From: Escherichia coli 042 | Lineage (GTDB): Bacteria; Pseudomonadota; Gammaproteobacteria; Enterobacterales; Enterobacteriaceae | Length of the DNA stretch: 64,000 bases | Strand: one strand, 5' to 3' | NCBI RefSeq assembly: GCF_000027125.1 | Contig: NC_017626.1 | Part shown: piece after piece, positions 42,147-51,381 of the stretch | How positions within the stretch are numbered: position 1 is the stretch's first letter | How the letters are laid out: every line of letters starts with the position of its first letter | The notes under the pieces: model-generated | What the model was told of the DNA's origin: nothing | The model's input: only the letters and a program-made list of their open reading frames with translations | Database searches by the model: none | Program-made: the position numbers and the translations under genes

Positions 42147-44534
42147 TTATCCAATACGTGCTCGTGCGCGTTCCTGTTCACGGATCTGCGCCTGAATTTG
42201 TGTATAAAGCTGCGCCTGTTCATTATCGCGATCGGTCGCGGTCACGACCAGTGCGTAAGGCTCCTGCTCGCTGCTGAATGCTTCGCCCCAGTCTCTGTCC
42301 TGACGGGTAACAACAATAAACCATTTTTCATCCGGGTTACGCTGGCGAAAAGTCCAAATCGACGACTGTACCGTCCCGCGTTCCCGCTGTTGGGCTGATA
42401 CAACACGGTTAGTCTGGGCATCATCGGAGCGGGTTTCCGTCTCACTCTGCGTCTGGTGATTAAAACTGGCCTGCACTTCATCCAGCGAGCGGCCCTTAAC
42501 CAGCCGGAAACCGATCCGTGTGGCAGTATAATCCAGCCGGGTGGTACGCACGGCGGGTGAATATGCCAGCGTAACGCGGACTTCACGGGTTGCACGCTGC
42601 GATCGTAAAAAAGAAGCCGGGAAGGGCAGTTCAAAAAATTGGTGCGCGTTATTTTCTATCTGCTCTTCACATCGCATGACCACCACATTTTCAGAAGAAC
42701 GATATAACGCATCTTCATCAATGATGCCGTAGCCTGTCACGTCGCGCTCAATCTCCCGGTTTCTCGTTGCAGGCGCATTTCTATAGCTTTCTCTCATGGC
42801 CTGCGGAAAAGCCTGCGTCATCTCCTGAGAAACAGAAGCATGATTGACCAGCATTGCCCGCAGCATATTGGCAGACATTTCCGGGTATTCATTTAGCAGT
42901 CGACCCGCCAGATGTGTGATATACGGCGCGGCAAAGCTGGTGCCGCTGAGTTCTTTAAACAGCGTATTACCCTGAAACTGGTGATGGCAGCTTAATACGC
43001 CCAGACCGCGCATATGTGCCTGCCATTGCCCTTGCCGAACGTTGGAAGCGACATTGCCACCGTGCGCTACAACGTCAGGTTTAAACGCGCCTTTTACCGA
43101 CGGGCCGTGTCGGGTAAAAGGCGACGGTTGGTTTTCCGTTGCCGGGCTGAGATGCTGAATATCGCCAGGCCTACGCTGCGCATCCAACGTTGCGTTATGT
43201 CTGGCGACGCTGCCCACTGTCAGTACGTTCAGCGCCGGAGCCGGATCGATGATTACGCTGTCCTCATGCAACAGGTAGTCAGGATATTCATCCCGCCAGC
43301 TATTTTGCGGCACCGGAGGATCGTCGCTGCCTGCGAAATTCCCCGCAGAGACGACAAACAGTACATTATATTGCCGCGCCAGCGTATCTAACAGATACGC
43401 CATACCGCGAATATGTTTGCCGTCATAGGGCGCATTAGCATTCCCCAGCGACAGATTGAAAATGCGGCAACCGAGATCGGTAAAATACGCGACGGCGGCT
43501 GTTAGTGTGCTTTCAATCGTTTCGGCATTGAATTCAGCCCGCTCGTTCAGTACTTTCCCGTTATACAGCCATAGCTGCGGCTGCCAGAAATTGCTCTGGT
43601 TACAGGCTTCAACGTCGCCATACAGAGCAATACTCGCTACGGCGGTGCCATGCCCCTCTTGATCAAACGCATCCTGATTGGGAATAAAGCTGGCGCTTTC
43701 AGCAATGGCGGCACTTAACAGAGGGTGATTGGTGTTGATGCCGCTATCCAGAATACAGACTCTGGCCGCATTTACCGCAGGCGAAATCAGATGCTCTGGA
43801 AGTGTATTGATGTCCCGGTTAATTTGTTGATAGCTAATGCCGCTGGACGGTGGCAAATCAACCAACCTGACGTCCCGATGCGCTAACAGGTATTCTGCTT
43901 GCGCGAGCGAAACCTCTATCCGGTACATCAACAGGCTGTCCAGATTGACTTTATCCCGCCAGAGAATCCCCTGCTCTCTGAGCCAATTTTCAAAACGGGT
44001 ATACAGGTCGATACGTCTGGGGTGATGCGCCACATCGACTGGCCAGAGCTCCACATCCAGATTAAAGCGTTCCGCTACAGGAAAACCATAGCGCCGGAGT
44101 GCCCAGCTTTTACGATCTTCCGCCGACCAGCCGTCAATGCCGTCAAGCGCTTCGAGAATATTCCTGTAGGTTAGGTCCGTACGGGGAAGCCCCAGTTGCG
44201 CCAGATGGGTTTCGAAGGTTGTCAGACCCTGCTCATTAGTGAAAACGATACAGACCTGTTTACCTTCCTGACTGATGAACTCCACGCCGTGATGTATCAA
44301 TGCTGAAAAATTCATTGTGCCGCTGTAGTTCAGCTTGAGGATATAGCGCCCGTCATCGGCGCTGCCGGGTACTTGTGCCAGCGTTGGGCGCAAGGTATGG
44401 AGTTGCGTCAACAGCATTTGCCCGTGCTGGCGTAAATCGCCCCTGCGAATACGGGGCATATTGACTCTGCGGGTCCGTCGGTCGTTTTGAAGTGGTGCTT
44501 TGGTAATCGTTAGATGCTGATAATTCGCCGTCAT
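42147..44534 (-). CDS. S8-family subtilisin-like serine peptidase (IetS-like)
   Basis: 795-aa product with catalytic-triad motifs in D-H-S order (CILDSGINTNHP, EGHGTAVASIA, SGTSFAAPYITH); 9-nt gap to the upstream AAA ATPase gene. Confidence 0.85.
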   Translation of the reverse strand: MTANYQHLTITKAPLQNDRRTRRVNMPRIRRGDLRQHGQMLLTQLHTLRPTLAQVPGSADDGRYILKLNYSGTMNFSALIHHGVEFISQEGKQVCIVFTNEQGLTTFETHLAQLGLPRTDLTYRNILEALDGIDGWSAEDRKSWALRRYGFPVAERFNLDVELWPVDVAHHPRRIDLYTRFENWLREQGILWRDKVNLDSLLMYRIEVSLAQAEYLLAHRDVRLVDLPPSSGISYQQINRDINTLPEHLISPAVNAARVCILDSGINTNHPLLSAAIAESASFIPNQDAFDQEGHGTAVASIALYGDVEACNQSNFWQPQLWLYNGKVLNERAEFNAETIESTLTAAVAYFTDLGCRIFNLSLGNANAPYDGKHIRGMAYLLDTLARQYNVLFVVSAGNFAGSDDPPVPQNSWRDEYPDYLLHEDSVIIDPAPALNVLTVGSVARHNATLDAQRRPGDIQHLSPATENQPSPFTRHGPSVKGAFKPDVVAHGGNVASNVRQGQWQAHMRGLGVLSCHHQFQGNTLFKELSGTSFAAPYITHLAGRLLNEYPEMSANMLRAMLVNHASVSQEMTQAFPQAMRESYRNAPATRNREIERDVTGYGIIDEDALYRSSENVVVMRCEEQIENNAHQFFELPFPASFLRSQRATREVRVTLAYSPAVRTTRLDYTATRIGFRLVKGRSLDEVQASFNHQTQSETETRSDDAQTNRVVSAQQRERGTVQSSIWTFRQRNPDEKWFIVVTRQDRDWGEAFSSEQEPYALVVTATDRDNEQAQLYTQIQAQIREQERARARIG

Positions 44535-44543
44535 GGCAGTCCC

Positions 44544-45524
44544 TTATCGGTGGGTTCTGGCGTTTTCTCGCTGAGTTGCGTTTTTTAAATCTTTTAGCGT
44601 CAGGAATTCCTGATGACGCAGGATCATATGCTTGGTTGCCCGACGGACAATGCGCTCAATATCTGCACCGCTTTTCCCGAGCAGCAGGGATAATAGCTCG
44701 CTATCGTCCAGCTCAAACTGACGGCGGGTGCCGCGTAATTTTAACGCCAACAGCTCACGTAACTGCGCCTGATCCGGCAACGGAAATTCAATCACTTCAT
44801 CAAATCGACGCCAGATGGCGCTGTCCAGAATGTGTTCATGGTTAGTGGCCGCCAGAATCAGGCTTTTACCCTGATAAGCATCCATCATTTGTAAAACGGC
44901 ATTGACGACCCGGCGTAATTCACCGTGTTCGCCGCTGTCGCCACGCTCTTTTCCTATGGCATCAAACTCATCGAACAACACCACCATTGGGTGCTCTGCA
45001 ATAAAATCGAAAATTTTACGCAGATTGGCGGCGGTTTCTCCCAAAAACGAAGACACCAGTACGTCGAGGCGGACAATTGCCAGCGGCATGTCCAGTTCAA
45101 AAGCGATAACCTCTGCTGTCAGCGTTTTACCGCAGCCCGGCGGTCCGAAAAACATGATCTTACTGGCTGCTTTCATCCCGTAGCTATGCAATACATCGCT
45201 ACGCCGGTGCTCTTCAAGGAGTTCATCAATCACTGTAGCGCTGGTCGCCGGGAGGATCATTTCATCAAGGCTGCGCTGTGGCTGCCGGAGATCCAGCAAC
45301 GGCAGGCCCCTTTCTTTATCTATCGGTGCTTGAGGAAGCGCAGGCGAGCGCGAAGCCTGAACAAGACGATCGCCGTAAAGAATATGCTCCAGATCGTTAG
45401 CCAGAAGGTGGTGCTGTTTCTGACGTTCCTCATCAATAATGGCTTCCGAAACACGACGGAAAGTAGCGGTATCACCCGTTGCGCCCGCTTTTATTAGTTG
45501 CCTTAATATCTTACCGTTAGCCAT
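44544..45524 (-). CDS. AAA-family ATPase (IetA-like)
   Basis: Walker A GPPGCGKT and Walker B VVLFDEFDA. ATG at 45524 has an AGGAG RBS; the ORF track extends to GTG 45548. Confidence 0.85.
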   Translation of the reverse strand: MANGKILRQLIKAGATGDTATFRRVSEAIIDEERQKQHHLLANDLEHILYGDRLVQASRSPALPQAPIDKERGLPLLDLRQPQRSLDEMILPATSATVIDELLEEHRRSDVLHSYGMKAASKIMFFGPPGCGKTLTAEVIAFELDMPLAIVRLDVLVSSFLGETAANLRKIFDFIAEHPMVVLFDEFDAIGKERGDSGEHGELRRVVNAVLQMMDAYQGKSLILAATNHEHILDSAIWRRFDEVIEFPLPDQAQLRELLALKLRGTRRQFELDDSELLSLLLGKSGADIERIVRRATKHMILRHQEFLTLKDLKNATQRENARTHR

Positions 45525-45549
45525 TATTGACTCCTGAAACCACAGCACT

Positions 45550-48416
45550 TCATGCGGAAGGTGAACTCAACGTCCAGCTCACCGCGAATAATTGACGGGA
45601 CGTTATTTCCGTCGCCAGCTTTTGCTCGACCTCTTCCAGCAGACGGTCCTCTTCCTGCTCGATTTTTTTCTTTTCATCATGATACTGCAACATGATGCTA
45701 TCCCGCTCGCGTTCCAGCACCTTTAATGCGCGCTTGGCTTCCATTTTCTCTTTTAGAGAAGGAAGCTGACGGGCGGCTTTACGCGCCTCTTTAATTTCTG
45801 CATCTAACTGTTTGATACGTAAGTCCAGCGCGATACGTCGATCTTCTGACCAGCGTTCAAGTTTTTCTACTTCTTCATTGTAATAAAGTTCGTTATCGCG
45901 TTCGACCTGTTGGATAAAAGAATGCCGTAAAACCTCACATTGTGTTGTTAACGCAGGCAGCAAAGGCTGTTCTTCGACAGATGTTATCTCTGATAATGGC
46001 AGGCGAAGCAGACGGGATACGGTTTCCTCTGCCAGCACTTCGCCATTTTCTGTAACAGCGACGGTCAATAGTTTCTCTCGCTGTTGCTCCTGATTTCCGA
46101 TGCTGACTTTTGCCAGCAACAGCTGTCCCGATTTCCCGCAGAACAGTTTAACATCGGCCAGTTGTCCGCTTCTGGGTTGGTAGATGAAATGGAGCTTCTG
46201 GCAAACTGGGGATGTGGAAAGGCTTGCCCCTTCATGCAGGGCAGCATCAATCAGTTGCTTCCCATATCCCTGGCTGGGCCGGAAGAATTCGGCATCTTTT
46301 TCATCCGCAATGGGCCAGTTGACGTCAAAATACTTTCCTCTGGAACGAAAACCCGTCTCAGAACGTTGAAAATCGCTCTCGTCGCTCAGAAACATTTCCG
46401 CCAGCAGCAACAGATTTTCCTGGTAATCGTTTAACTGCGCGAGGGTGGTTGTACGTCGGGTTTTCAGATTGCGGACCACATCAACGTCAAAATGCTCGAA
46501 TAATGAACGCCGGGTTTCATTCTCCCGATTTTCCAGTTGATCTTTGAGTTCATCCTGCAGCTGATTAAATTCCTGTTCAATTTGTTCATCGGAGCGGCAG
46601 TGCTGGTATATCTCATGAATACGTCGTTCAATATCAACACCTGATTCGATCGACCCCAGAATGTCATCGGATGCGCCAAACACCCCTTCAAAAAGCTGGA
46701 ACTTCTGGCTCAATAATTCAAACACGCGCTGATCGGCACGGTTGCCTTTATTAATAAAATTAACCACCACGACATCGTGTTTTTGTCCATAGCGGTGAAC
46801 ACGCCCGATACGTTGCTCCACGCGCTGCGGATTCCACGGTAAATCATAATTGATTAACAGCGAACAAAACTGGAGGTTGATACCTTCTGCGCCCGCTTCA
46901 GTACAAATCATCAGGGTGCCTTCGTCCCTGAATTTTTCAACCAGCGCTGCCTTCATATCCGCCGTACTCGAACCGGAAACCCGGCCAGAGTTCTGATGTT
47001 TCTCCAGCCAGTCGCTGTAAATCTTCTTCGACACCGCATCGCTATTGCTGCCATTGAGCAGAACCACTTCTCCCTCGTAGCCACTTTCTGACAACAGTTG
47101 CGCCAGCCAGGTCTGGGTGCGTACGGACTCGGTAAAAATGACCGCCTTACGTAATCCGCCCAGTTCAGCCGTAAAGGTAAAGGCCCGATCGAGAACGCGT
47201 AACAGTGCTTCGGCCTTGGCGTTTTTGGTAATCGATGCCGCTAAAGTCTTATAATTTTTTAACTGGTCAATTTCGGCCTGTAGCGCCTGAGGATCGATGG
47301 TATCTTCGTCATCAATGCCTTCTTCATCGCTGTAATCGTCGTAATTTTCATAATCCGTCAGCGCATCCAGCACCGGCATTTTACTTTCAAGACGGTGGAT
47401 CATCGTTTCCAGCGTTCCCTGGATCGCTGTAGACGATGAGGCCAGAATTTTACGAATGACTAACGTTACTAGGTGACGCGCGCCGCTTTTGATCGCCAGT
47501 AGATCGTCCCGCTGCAAATAAGAGGAAACCTGTTTATAGAGCACTTCTTCGTCTTCCGTCGGACGAAAGTCTTCGGTTATTGAATGGCGTCGGGTAAAAC
47601 TGATCCCGCCTTCCTGCTGAACCTGTCGACGAAGCGTTCGATTACAGATTTTATTCAGACGAACCCTTAATAATGCCAGTTCTGCATCGTCAATATTCTG
47701 TCGGGAATAACGGGCCTTGAACGAAGCAAGGTCGCCGAAAAAATGAGGATCAATCACGGAAATCAGGCCGTAAAGCTCAAGAATACTGTTTTGTAGCGGC
47801 GTGGCGGAAAGCAGTATTTTTTTTCTGCCGGACAGTGCGCCACTGAGTTTTTTGGCTGTTTTAGCGCCATCGTTCTTGTAGATATTACGCAGTTTATGCG
47901 CCTCATCCATGACGACCAGATCCCACGGGATTCGTGCCAGCTCGTGCTCTTTACGGGCAGCGAATTCGTATGAACAAATGCAGATCGCCGCTTTCCCGGT
48001 TGCATTTTCAATATCAAAGGGATTATCGCTCCCCTCTTTAACCATTTGATTGAAGATCTTCGCTTCAATAATTTGTGAAGGCAGCGAAAATTTCTCTTCC
48101 AGCTCCTGGCTCCACTGCTTGCGTAGCGTTGCGGGTGCAATCAGCAACAGTTTTCGGCGGCGTTCAGCCCATTTTGCGCCAAAATCAGGCTGGCCTCAAT
48201 AGTTTTCCCCAGTCCCACTTCATCGGCCAGGATCACGCCATTCGACAGGGGAGATGCCAGCGCAAACATCGCAGCCTCTACCTGATGAGGATTCATATCA
48301 ACCCGTGCGCTGGCAATAGTTTGCGTCAGCGAGTCCTCGGCTTTGCCGCTTAACGTCAACCAGTGGGCCAGATAACTACGTTGGTGATCTGAATACATTT
48401 TCATACCTTTGTGCAA
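45550..48416 (-). pseudogene. SNF2-family helicase-like protein with C-terminal coiled coil, split by a frameshift at a T4/A4 tract
   Basis: N-terminal 91-aa ORF carries motif I (ADEVGLGKTIEAS); the 865-aa ORF carries DEAH (VVMDEAHKLRN) and helicase C motifs (QRIGRVHRYGQ). The downstream frame reads KWAERRRKLLLIAPATL upstream of its ORF-track start, so the frames join at about 48160-48166. Confidence 0.78.
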
Positions 48417-48698
48417 AGAGGGGGAGGGGAGCGCGACCGTATTTTACTGATATATGAACCGGGTTGCTAATCTGGAAGATGGCTCGCATTACATCCCCTT
48501 GTCGTTCACCGGGCTTCGCGGTCTCTTTTCCTCGCGTCTGCAAAATCAGGCGCCGGGCTTGACCTCCTGAACACTCCTTAGTGACGACACAATGGCGCGC
48601 TCGCGCCTTTTTTGTGCCGGTGCTCGGCTACACCTCAATGGCGGACCGGGCGGGGGCGTCGCAAGGCGCGCTGGATGGACTGTTCTGAGGAGGCAGGA

Positions 48699-49402
48699 AT
48701 GAGACGATTACCGCTGATGGTGGGCGTGATAGTGGGCGTAATGCTGGCTGTCGGCTGCCATGACCGTAGGGCTGGTGTGAGGACGCTGCTGGGCGATGGC
48801 GTGGAGCAATGGGGGCAGAAGTTGCCTTACGACCACTGGGAATTCAATTTTTTTACCCGAAAAATCTGCCGGCACTGGTGACAATGGTGTATCTGGAGGA
48901 CGGGGATATCCGGGAGAGCTTTTTCCGGCGACTGGATCCGACTGAACCCAGTCAGAGCAGTGTGGGAAAATGGAGCCAGCACGTAGGCGGTTTTTTAGCC
49001 AGTTTTAATATTGGCAAGGCGCTGCCTGTCAGGATGACGGTATGCTGGGACTCAGTTATCGATAAAAAGGCGTATGAGACGGAGATCTGGTTCAGCCGGG
49101 ATACGTGGCAGCAGATGCTGACTGCCTATCCTGATACTTATCGTCCGGGAAAAATATATTACCGAAACAAAATGATTATTGGCCTGCCCCCCGGTGGTAA
49201 AGTCAGGGTATGGTTAAAAGACAATCGTAATCCTGTTGTACTCCAGAATCCTGCCCGACAGTTCACCCTGACGGGAGATGATATGCTGATATGCAAAAAT
49301 GTTCCCAACAAGATTGATTTCAGTTACATCAAGGCTAACGGTTACGATCCATTTATCCGCGATTTTATCAAGGAAAAGCCCTATCCGTATGGTCACTGGT
49401 AG
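48699..49402 (+). pseudogene. Putative lipoprotein, frameshifted at a T7 tract
   Basis: ATG 48699 with a GAGGAGG RBS; signal peptide and lipobox (MRRLPLMVGVIVGVMLAVGC). The frame terminates shortly after a T7 run (48848-48854) and continues in another frame to 49402 (197-aa ORF). Confidence 0.5.
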
Positions 49403-49424
49403 GGCGCAACGATCAGCAAAATTA

Positions 49425-49785
49425 AAATGATCTTCTTGAGATCCTTTTAAGCTGCGCGTAATCTTCGGCTTGTAAACGGAAAAAGCCGCCTTGCGGCGGC
49501 TTTTTCCGTCCGATTAGAAGTCTTCGACCTCTTCTAATCGACTGTGGTAACTGGCTTGATGGAGCACAGATACCAAATGCTGTCCTTCCAGTGTAGCCGC
49601 TATAAGGCTTCAACTTCAAGAGTTCTGCGTATCTAAATCCACTATCCAGTTACCAATGGCTGCTGCCAGTGGCGTTAAGTCGTGTCTTACCGGGTTGGAC
49701 TCAAGACGATAGTTACCGGATAAGGCGCAGCGGTCGGGCTGAACGGGGGGGCGTGCACACAGCCCAGCCTAGAGGACTCGACTTA
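49425..49785 (+). other. ColE1/pMB1-type plasmid replication origin remnant (RNA II 5' region with antisense RNA I region), truncated
   Basis: Strong similarity to the ColE1-family ori as I recall it (GATCTTCTTGAGATCC, GTAACTGGCTT, CAGATACCAAAT, CTGCTGCCAGTGGCG, TAAGTCGTGTCTTACCGGGTTGGACTCAAGACGATAGTTACCGGATAAGGCGCAGCGGTCGGGCTGAACGGGGGG), with divergent stem-loop sequences. Homology ends near 49785, before the origin proper. Confidence 0.75.
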
Positions 49786-49867
49786 TTTAATTGTGTAAAC
49801 AGGGCCTCTCCGCGAAAGACCCTTATGCATCACCTGACGTTAAAAGTCACTACACCCAAGATGACGT

Positions 49868-50247
49868 TCAATGGCACCATGTGATTTCAATGTAAGCCCG
49901 GGCCGTCTGTTCCAGTACACCAGGCTCAGCGTTGTATGTGTTAGCTGCATCAAATACCAACGTCAGCACTTCAGGATACACAACCAGATATGTAATGGAG
50001 TTATCTTCATCCAATACTTTTCCCCACGCCTGCTCAATCAGATTTCTGAGAACCACCACCTCACGACTCTTACACCAGACATCGTTATTAAGTAGCAGCA
50101 CCATAAGATAAGGAGTGGTATCGTTAGCCACAGCCTCCCTGCTCCAGAGATAATATAAAGGGGGGGCTCAACAGATTGATCTTTACGTCGCTTACACTGC
50201 AAATATTCAGAAATGAGTCTATGCATTTCACCAGTAAAATCAGCCAT
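49868..50247 (-). pseudogene. Hypothetical protein split across two frames at a G7 tract
   Basis: 69-aa ORF (50038-50247) and 87-aa ORF (49868-50131) overlap in different frames. One extra G in the G7 run at 50159-50165 would fuse them into about 126 aa. Confidence 0.3.
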
Positions 50248-50271
50248 CAGAGAGGGGGTAATGACTCCAAC

Positions 50272-50649
50272 TTATTGATAGTGTTTTATGTTCAGATAAT
50301 GCCCGATGACTTTGTCATGCAGCTCCACCGATTTTGAGAACGACAGCGACTTCCGTCCCAGCCGTGCCAGGTGCTGCCTCAGATTCAGGTTATGCCGCTC
50401 AATTCGCTGCGTATATCGCTTGCTGATTACGTGCAGCTTTCCCTTCAGGCGGGATTCATACAGCGGCCAGTCATCCGTCATCCATATCACCACGTCAAAG
50501 GGTGACAGCAGGCTCATAAGACGCCCCAGCGTCGCCATAGTGCGTTCACCGAATACGTGCGCAACAACCGTCTTCCGGAGCCTGTCATACGCGTAAAACA
50601 GCCAGCGCTGGCGCGATTTAGCCCCGACATAGCCCCACTGTTCGTCCAT
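50272..50649 (-). CDS. insB: IS1 InsB reading frame (expressed as InsAB' by frameshifting)
   Basis: 125-aa ORF matching the IS1 InsB C-terminal region ([47 protein letters not shown]). Confidence 0.8.
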
Positions 50650-50693
50650 TTCCGCGCAGACGATGACGTCACTGCCCGGCTGTATGCGCGAGG

Positions 50694-50969
50694 TTACCGA
50701 CTGCGGCCTGAGTTTTTTAAGTGACGTAAAATCGTGTTGAGGCCAACGCCCATAATGCGGGCAGTTGCCCGGCAGCCAACGCCATTCATGGCCATATCAA
50801 TGATTTTCTGGTGCGTACCGGGTTGAGAAGCGGTGTAAGTGAACTGCAGTTGCCATGTTTTACGGCAGTGAGAGCAGAGATAGCGCTGATGTCCGGCGGT
50901 GCTTTTGCCGTTACGCACCACCCCGTCAGTAGCTGAACAGGAGGGACAGCTGATAGAAACAGAAGCCAC
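50694..50969 (-). CDS. insA: IS1 InsA
   Basis: 91-aa product [43 protein letters not shown] matches IS1 InsA. Confidence 0.9.
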
Positions 50970-51349
50970 TGGAGCACCTCAAAAACACCATCATACACTA
51001 AATCAGTAAGTTGGCAGCATCACCTGTTCCCAAAATTTTATTTATCTTCATCACTTACAGAGAATGCTCAACATTTGCTAGTCTTTTCCTGTCCTGGTAT
51101 CCAAAGTCTCCTCCCAAATATCCTGGATACTAGCTTAGACAAAATGAGATTATATTTATGGTAAATTATATCATAACAGCTTTTGTTAAGGATGCTGTGT
51201 AAGATAAAATATATGGGTTAGAGGCAGATTCTTTTGCAATCAGGAAGAAGATAATCACTGATGTTATCGGATATGTAGCAGTATTCGTTATAGCTATTTA
51301 GAGAAATTTGTGCCACAATTTATTATAGAGTTTAAAGAAAAATATATTG

Positions 51350-51378
51350 AAAATAAAATCCGGGCTATTGCCCGGATT
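51350..51378 (-). terminator. Rho-independent terminator downstream of the integrase gene
   Basis: Hairpin ATCCGGGC TATT GCCCGGAT flanked by A/T runs, directly 3' of the integrase stop. Confidence 0.55.
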
Positions 51379-51381
51379 TTA

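Follow-up and report, generated by a model that had tools for sequence, protein, structure and literature searches.

Why does the chromosome of Escherichia coli 042 contain, inside a genomic island, a piece of DNA resembling the replication primer region of a ColE1-family plasmid? A preliminary description made from the letters alone proposed that positions 49425-49785 are what is left of a small ColE1-like plasmid that integrated between a lipoprotein gene and an IS1 element. We analysed the window, a stretch of 64,000 nucleotides of contig NC_017626.1 (assembly GCF_000027125.1). We conclude, with a probability of about 0.9, that the locus is a decayed and non-replicating relic of a small ColE1-family plasmid that carried the T6SS pair tle1-tli1.

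The assignment to the ColE1 family was borne out by comparison with plasmids. Using blastn, we found that positions 594-958 of ColE1 (NC_001371) align with 49425-49774 of the window at 77% identity (E ~3e-72), and that at least 5000 records of a plasmid collection match 49400-49800. Among the matches listed, most were small mobilizable enterobacterial plasmids and the best was the natural IncF plasmid pSTEC17_183-a (98.1%). The Rfam RNAI model (RF00106) matched positions 49476-49581 of the minus strand over its full length (model positions 1-102 of 102; 59.9 bits, E 1.9e-8), above its gathering score of 47 bits. Colinearity with ColE1 spans the conserved block TAAGTCGTGTCTTACCGGGTTGGACTCAAGACGATAGTTACCGGATAAGGCGCAGCGGTCGGGCTGAACGGGGGG (49677-49751), which includes the G-run of the RNAII template (49745-49751), and ends at 49774, corresponding to RNAII +303/+304. 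The proposed start of the segment was thus retained and its end was not. When compared by BLAST with the full origin of pS19_141-f (E. coli, NZ_CP075646, 6.7 kb), the closest living plasmid, the relic also stopped matching at RNAII +304, and the ori-proximal motif GGAAAAACGCC lies at +538 in that plasmid. The preliminary description was therefore right that homology stops before the RNase H processing site and the origin. It was also right that the stem-loops differ from those of pMB1: a pUC origin sequence, which we treat as a lead only, is 78% identical to the relic, and the RNAI stem-loops differ from ColE1 in the alignment as well.

Alignment and BLAST found neither the 3' half of RNAII, nor the RNase H processing site, nor the origin elsewhere in the 64-kb window, and no part of the window matched the rop regions of pEA5_2 (E. 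albertii, NZ_CP117577, 5.4 kb), pS19_141-f or ColE1. In living plasmids the 3' part of RNAII forms an RNA-DNA hybrid that RNase H cuts so that Pol I is primed, and rop (also rom) is an accessory gene found in most natural ColE1-type members. Because the RNase H site and the origin are absent, the locus should be unable to prime DNA synthesis or to act as an origin. The distance from the ColE1 origin back to the transcription start is 555 bp for RNAII and 445 bp for RNAI (PMC11012335). Of the parts of a ColE1-type replicon, the window has the RNAII promoter with the RNAII 5' region and an RNAI with three stem-loops, and lacks the RNAII 3' domain with the origin, and rop. The features of the locus are collected in Table 1.

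Table 1. Features of the plasmid relic and of its right-hand neighbours in the window.
Feature	Positions	Strand	Basis
Whole plasmid-derived block: tle1 3' end, tli1 pseudogene, 5' part of ColE1-type origin	48668-49774	+	Plasmid comparison
tle1 (DUF2235, T6SS phospholipase effector), last 21 nt including stop codon; rest deleted	48668-48688	+	Aligns with the end of the pEA5_2 DUF2235 gene
tli1 (DUF2931 lipoprotein, Tle1 immunity), pseudogene	48699-49402	+	Protein alignment, frame switch after EFNFF
RNAII promoter: -35 TTGAGA (49436-49441), 17-nt spacer, -10 TAATCT (49459-49464)	49436-49464	+	Alignment
RNAII template, first ~303 nt	49472-49774	+	Alignments with ColE1 and plasmids; ends before origin
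RNAI gene (antisense RNA of about 110 nt: unpaired 5' tail, then three stem-loops)	49474-49583	-	Rfam, fold
RNAI promoter: -35 TTGAAG (complement of 49614-49619), 18-nt spacer, -10 TACACT (complement of 49590-49595)	49590-49619	-	Alignment
48-codon ORF, TTG start; 'replication initiation protein' of RefSeq/PGAP	49616-49762	-	Annotation, translation
YagK/YfjJ (inovirus Gp2-type) gene: 3' flank and C-terminal part; residual ORF 49868-50131	49775-50256	-	Homology
IS1, 768 bp; truncates the YagK/YfjJ gene	50257-51024	-	IS1 terminal sequences, annotation

The plasmid-derived DNA extends well to the left of the origin segment. Whole-plasmid comparison identified the block in the first line of Table 1 as the sole part of the window matching small ColE1 plasmids, with 95.8% identity to pEA5_2 and 89.1% to pS19_141-f, each over 1113 aligned columns. 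These two plasmids share the layout [tle1]-tli1-ori-rop, in which the DUF2931 gene lies directly upstream of the RNAII promoter. The preliminary description was thus correct about a plasmid integration and misplaced its left limit, since tli1 and the end of tle1 lie inside the block. Full tle1 is intact in the plasmids and in the chromosome of strain DETEC-P1056, and the plasmid-encoded Tle1, a full-length DUF2235 relative, matched EAEC Tle1 (PDB 6SJL) with an E value of 2e-201. The tli1 of the window is 98% identical to that of pEA5_2 and has a 1-nt deletion after codon 52 (~48855) that puts the lipoprotein signal out of frame with the remainder of the protein. This detachment of the signal peptide from the domain accounts for the two PGAP CDSs annotated at tli1. 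The intact allele in CFSAN004176 is one indel apart from it and matches Pfam DUF2931 (PF11153) at 2e-31; NCBIfam gave no match for either form of tli1 or for the YagK remnant. DUF2931 lipoproteins are Tli1 immunity proteins, cognate to Tle1 (PMC10395195). A lipoprotein signal and a DUF2931 domain in one frame are not found in the window tli1, which, being frameshifted, probably confers no immunity.

Among the matches listed, ColE1-type plasmids of 5-7 kb with a Tle1 and DUF2931 Tli1 pair occurred in E. coli, E. albertii and E. marmotae; a literature search found no paper describing such small tle1-tli1 plasmids. One of them, pEA5_2, also has a match to the Rfam traJ-II RNA at 4020-4102 of its plus strand (41.7 bits, gathering score 40), just downstream of a ProQ/FinO-family gene.

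The origin segment of the relic is itself composite. In a comparison of 49403-49774, it follows the Tle1-plasmid type in the RNAII promoter and in RNAI stem-loops III and II. From stem-loop I through the RNAI promoter to the G-run, it is instead identical to the colicin K plasmid type represented by pECAZ146_4. The origin of the ancestral plasmid was thus a recombinant, with the crossover inside the RNAI gene.

To the right of the block, IS1 is not the immediate neighbour that the preliminary description had taken it to be. Homology to the YagK/YfjJ region begins exactly at 49774/5, and the DNA from there to 50256, the 3' flank and end of a gene later truncated by IS1, is 95-97% identical to intact inovirus-type Gp2 or YagK-YfjJ gene regions of other islands. 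We aligned six chromosomal copies (the window, BEC1, SCPM-O-B-9427, CFSAN004176, CAU16175 and DETEC-P1056), and all six have the same right junction, in which ...CCCAGCCT(A/G)GAG on the plasmid side is joined to GACTCGACTTAT on the island side. Uninterrupted islands read ...GCTGGTCG directly followed by GACTCGACTTAT, 66-94 bp past the stop codon of an intact YagK/YfjJ gene. Plasmid and island share a microhomology of only 1-2 nt at the crossover, which argues for illegitimate recombination and rules out homologous or Xer-type integration. We also considered IS1 as the vehicle of the plasmid DNA and rejected it: CFSAN004176 and DETEC-P1056 share the relic junction and have an intact YagK/YfjJ gene with no IS1. 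The IS1 element therefore arrived later.

Two further observations concern IS1. The copy at 50257-51024 lacks a 9-bp target duplication, and in relatives the sequences on either side of it do not adjoin. In UPEC69, the IS1-free site (19495-19545 of the compared segment) looks like a CATCA-microhomology deletion that left the last two IS1 bases, and IS1 thus appears to be ancestral at this site and not newly inserted in the window.

The window is chromosomal E. coli DNA, and over positions 36001-52965 it shows 99.9% identity to the pheV tRNA-Phe island end of O104:H4 strain 2011C-3493. From left to right, this part comprises a defence cluster ending in an SNF2 gene, a short spacer, the plasmid-derived block, the YagK/YfjJ remnant, IS1, a P4-type integrase and tRNA-Phe (52845-52917, minus strand), beyond which lies the pheU neighbourhood (dicD, dsbD, cutA), as in UPEC69. 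This end of the island, with its defence cluster, relic, IS1 and integrase (51383-52917 compared), is found at pheU in the window and UPEC69 and at pheV in O104:H4 and its relatives. The island, or its end, has thus moved between the two tRNA-Phe genes.

Several elements of the surrounding DNA were recorded alongside. PADLOC delimited the defence cluster at 37637-48416 (minus strand), consisting of a Type III R-M system (res 37637-40507, mod 40510-42138), IetS (42147-44534), IetA (44544-45548) and a DrmD-like SNF2 helicase (45550-48416). Two 1-nt deletions, in mod (41415) and in the SNF2 gene (48171), are private to the window when it is compared with O104:H4 and UPEC69, and they reflect either real inactivation or sequencing errors. 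To the left of the plasmid-derived block, Rfam identified isrK (RF01394) at 48534-48613 of the plus strand (56.8 bits, gathering score 50). This match belongs to the SNF2-side flank: CFSAN004176 has it too, and neither the plasmids nor DETEC-P1056 do. The DNA around it (48516-48665) is ~80% similar to DNA beside SymE toxin genes in Klebsiella. Farther away, an ALIL pseudoknot (RF01497, 116 bits) at 15920-16035 of the plus strand is the ordinary frameshift-stimulating element of an IS3-family transposase.

We then consider how widespread the relic is and in what state. The block with both junctions was present in 57 of 5426 complete E. coli genomes, including O104:H4, 55989 and E24377A. The origin query matched 65 chromosomal places in this sample versus 1647 plasmid places, so that almost all ColE1-origin DNA found on chromosomes in the species sample comes from this one relic. 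Its origin part was 100% identical in at least 42 copies (among them O104:H4, 55989, E24377A and UMNK88), and O104:H4 and UPEC69 are both 100% identical to the window over this part. Since the flanks are equally conserved, this identity is neutral with regard to selection, neither proving nor excluding it.

Other copies have decayed differently. The DETEC-P1056 chromosome has a less decayed copy, arranged as rop-(~0.5 kb)-tle1-tli1-ori' and followed by YagK; in this circularly permuted form of the plasmid, the break lies between RNAII +304 and rop, and the 3' half of the origin is gone. It is the only chromosomal copy in which rop survives. In CFSAN004176, the SNF2-side junction, tli1 and YagK/YfjJ are intact, and a 31-bp deletion between CGGCTT repeats has removed RNAII +1 and half of the RNAI terminator, with loss of the RF00106 match. 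The decay added in the window consists of the tli1 frameshift and of the IS1 that truncates YagK/YfjJ. As the right junction is identical in all sampled chromosomal copies, we infer a single ancestral event. The plasmid would have joined the tRNA-Phe genomic island once, by illegitimate recombination, and on its side the breakpoint falls within the primer gene at RNAII ~+303. It would have lost the origin together with the half of RNAII next to it, with rop surviving in one lineage; tle1 would have gone in later deletions, and tli1 would have been disrupted by the loss of 1 nt. The break at +303 may be the integration crossover itself or a later deletion.

Two copies differ in another way. The relics of BEC1-S17-ESBL-09 and SCPM-O-B-9427 have a tli1 that is 100% identical to that of the window and outer flanks that are 99.6-99.8% identical, and their 372-bp origin part (segment positions 2479-2851 and 2479-2853, respectively) has 6-7 clustered substitutions, for example CCAGTGG...GCGCTTTGTCG. 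Such clustering suggests that other resident ColE1-type plasmids served as donors in gene conversion. No plasmid was found to carry the BEC1-specific patch, which is also missing from the colicin K-type pECAZ146_4.

What the relic may still do depends on its RNAI gene. We take the hexamers of Table 1 to be the RNAII and RNAI promoters from established ColE1/pMB1 knowledge, and all four are invariant columns in an alignment of the window with ColE1, pEA5_2, pS19_141-f and pSTEC17_183-a. A simple sigma-70 scan called neither promoter; we do not count this against them because ColE1's own identical hexamers fail the same thresholds. By analogy with ColE1, the predicted RNAII +1 is the G at 49472. 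The RNAI start (A49583) lies 111 nt downstream of it on the opposite strand, compared with 110 in ColE1. The minus-strand RNAI put forward in the preliminary description (49588-49480) thus keeps its strand, with coordinates refined to 49583 to ~49474. The predicted RNAI fold has three hairpins (MFE -54 kcal/mol, z = -8.2), of which the third and last doubles as the intrinsic terminator, in agreement with a terminator-like hairpin on the minus strand at 49485-49497; in stem-loop III, a 16-bp stem carries a 4-nt loop. RNAIs of related autonomous plasmids and of the DETEC-P1056 chromosomal copy scored 59.8-64.5 bits with RF00106. An identical RNAI was not found in any PLSDB plasmid; the closest autonomous plasmid reaches 96%, with the differences in loop I and the 5' tail.

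With its promoter, three stem-loops and terminator kept, the RNAI of the relic is plausibly, and judging from sequence probably, still transcribed. Every promoter and terminator element matches living relatives, from which we infer transcription of both RNAI and a truncated RNAII. Both promoters would fire, yielding an RNAI of ~110 nt and a truncated RNAII that would read antisense into the YagK/YfjJ remnant and IS1, and RNAI would pair with the RNAII fragment, as in the plasmid. In such a case, single-copy RNAI could slightly depress, and the 5' fragment of RNAII could slightly titrate, the copy control of incoming plasmids with matching loops.

Could the relic then be more than inert? One version of this idea is that the hybrid RNAI is expressed from the chromosome as a trans-acting incompatibility determinant and that, separately, the 350 bp of origin homology serve as a landing pad for recombination with resident ColE1 plasmids. 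It would imply that related ColE1 plasmids establish less readily or are kept at fewer copies because of the hybrid RNAI. A hint of the landing pad is seen in the clustered substitutions of two strains; we nevertheless regard the combined proposal as unlikely. Less likely again is a domesticated anti-plasmid or incompatibility determinant, in which RNAI and an RNAII decoy have been kept to interfere in trans with the establishment or copy number of cognate ColE1-type plasmids, for example those with tle1. It draws on the intact RNAI gene, promoter and terminator, which score like those of living plasmids, on the adjoining defence cluster, and on the fact that the chromosomal (+304) and IncF (+351) lineages both keep RNAI and lose only the origin. 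However, loss of the origin with retention of the upstream part is also expected from simple selection against an active high-copy origin. The sister copy in CFSAN004176 has lost the RNAI terminator and the RNAII start, and the adjacent tli1 is frameshifted, indicating that the block is decaying. No PLSDB plasmid has an identical RNAI that could be an exact target, the best autonomous candidate being 96% identical, and the RNAI from one gene copy would amount to only a small fraction of what a multicopy plasmid makes. Collectively, the decay in sister copies, the broken tli1, the lack of a known exact-match target plasmid and the little RNAI that a single copy supplies speak against selection for such a trans function: an effect on cognate plasmids is mechanistically possible, and selection for it is unlikely. 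We prefer the reading as a decaying plasmid relic.

The annotation of this relic raises a different possibility, namely that the minus-strand ORF called 'replication initiation protein' (Table 1) is a protein-coding gene. Although PGAP gives the same name in many genomes and in ColE1 itself, we consider this very improbable. The ORF lies wholly inside the RNAII template, in antisense, its length differs among copies (114, 144, 147 or 162 nt), and its 48-aa product has no Pfam and no NCBIfam match. ColE1 replication uses host enzymes and an RNA primer, with no need for a plasmid-encoded initiator (PMC11012335). Given its 48 codons, its TTG start, the missing support from Pfam and NCBIfam and a replicon class that works without an initiator, we treat it as spurious.

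Two remaining explanations have a negligible probability. Contamination by a cloning vector or an assembly artefact might be suspected from ColE1/pMB1-type origins being the commonest vector backbone, but the relic is only 77% identical to ColE1 and 78% to the pUC origin sequence taken as a lead, its best match among those listed is the natural IncF plasmid at 98.1%, and the block with both junctions occurs in 57 complete genomes from unrelated laboratories; the vector identity named beforehand as a refutation was thus not found. A still-functional integrated replicon or cryptic secondary chromosomal origin would agree with the retained RNAII promoter and G-run (which starts R-loop formation in ColE1), but the whole window lacks the 250 nt at the 3' end of RNAII, together with the hybrid-forming region and the start site for RNase H/Pol I.

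In ~1% of complete E. coli chromosomes, the 'replication initiation protein' annotated by PGAP traces back to this relic. The IncF case suggests that the relic could also cause false ColRNAI calls in the replicon typing of draft genomes, including those of O104:H4, 55989 and E24377A: five STEC IncF plasmids (pSTEC17_183-a, pSTEC2018_166-a, pSTEC648_1, p_STEC1585_2 and CP027674) are typed as ColRNAI replicons by MOB-suite despite truncation at +351, which is probably a false multi-replicon call. The relic further documents a route of gene flow, by which small ColE1 plasmids carry tle1-tli1 into chromosomes and large conjugative plasmids, the high-copy origin being destroyed both times. If RNAI is still made, the chromosome would supply an antisense RNA that can cross-talk with the copy control of plasmids. 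No prior description of this locus was found in the open-access literature, which is weak evidence of novelty. A truncated ColE1 replicon is a thoroughly known kind of object, and the value of this one lies mainly in correcting annotation and typing and in exemplifying the transfer of a T6SS module.

Compared with the theta replicons of the ColE1/pMB1 family, the relic has RNAII and RNAI promoter hexamers identical to those of ColE1 and has kept the conserved block through the G-run, but it comprises only RNAII +1 to ~+303 and is chromosomal and single-copy. It is colinear with the small tle1-tli1 plasmids pEA5_2 and pS19_141-f over tli1, the RNAII promoter and RNAI stem-loops III and II, whereas these plasmids have a full origin and rop, and pS19_141-f also has tle1. 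The IncF cointegrate relics of pSTEC17_183-a, pSTEC2018_166-a, pSTEC648_1 and p_STEC1585_2 likewise consist of tle1-tli1 followed by a 3'-truncated ColE1 origin, but their tle1 and tli1 are intact and they are embedded in conjugative plasmids instead of the chromosome; their truncation at RNAII +351, not +304, points to an independent event. That cargo was kept and the origin lost in both lineages would fit selection against an active high-copy origin in a low-copy replicon. Finally, the locus resembles orphan T6SS immunity genes of genomic islands in having tli1 without its tle1 effector in a mobile island; it differs from them in that tli1 is frameshifted in the window, the intact orphan allele being that of CFSAN004176.
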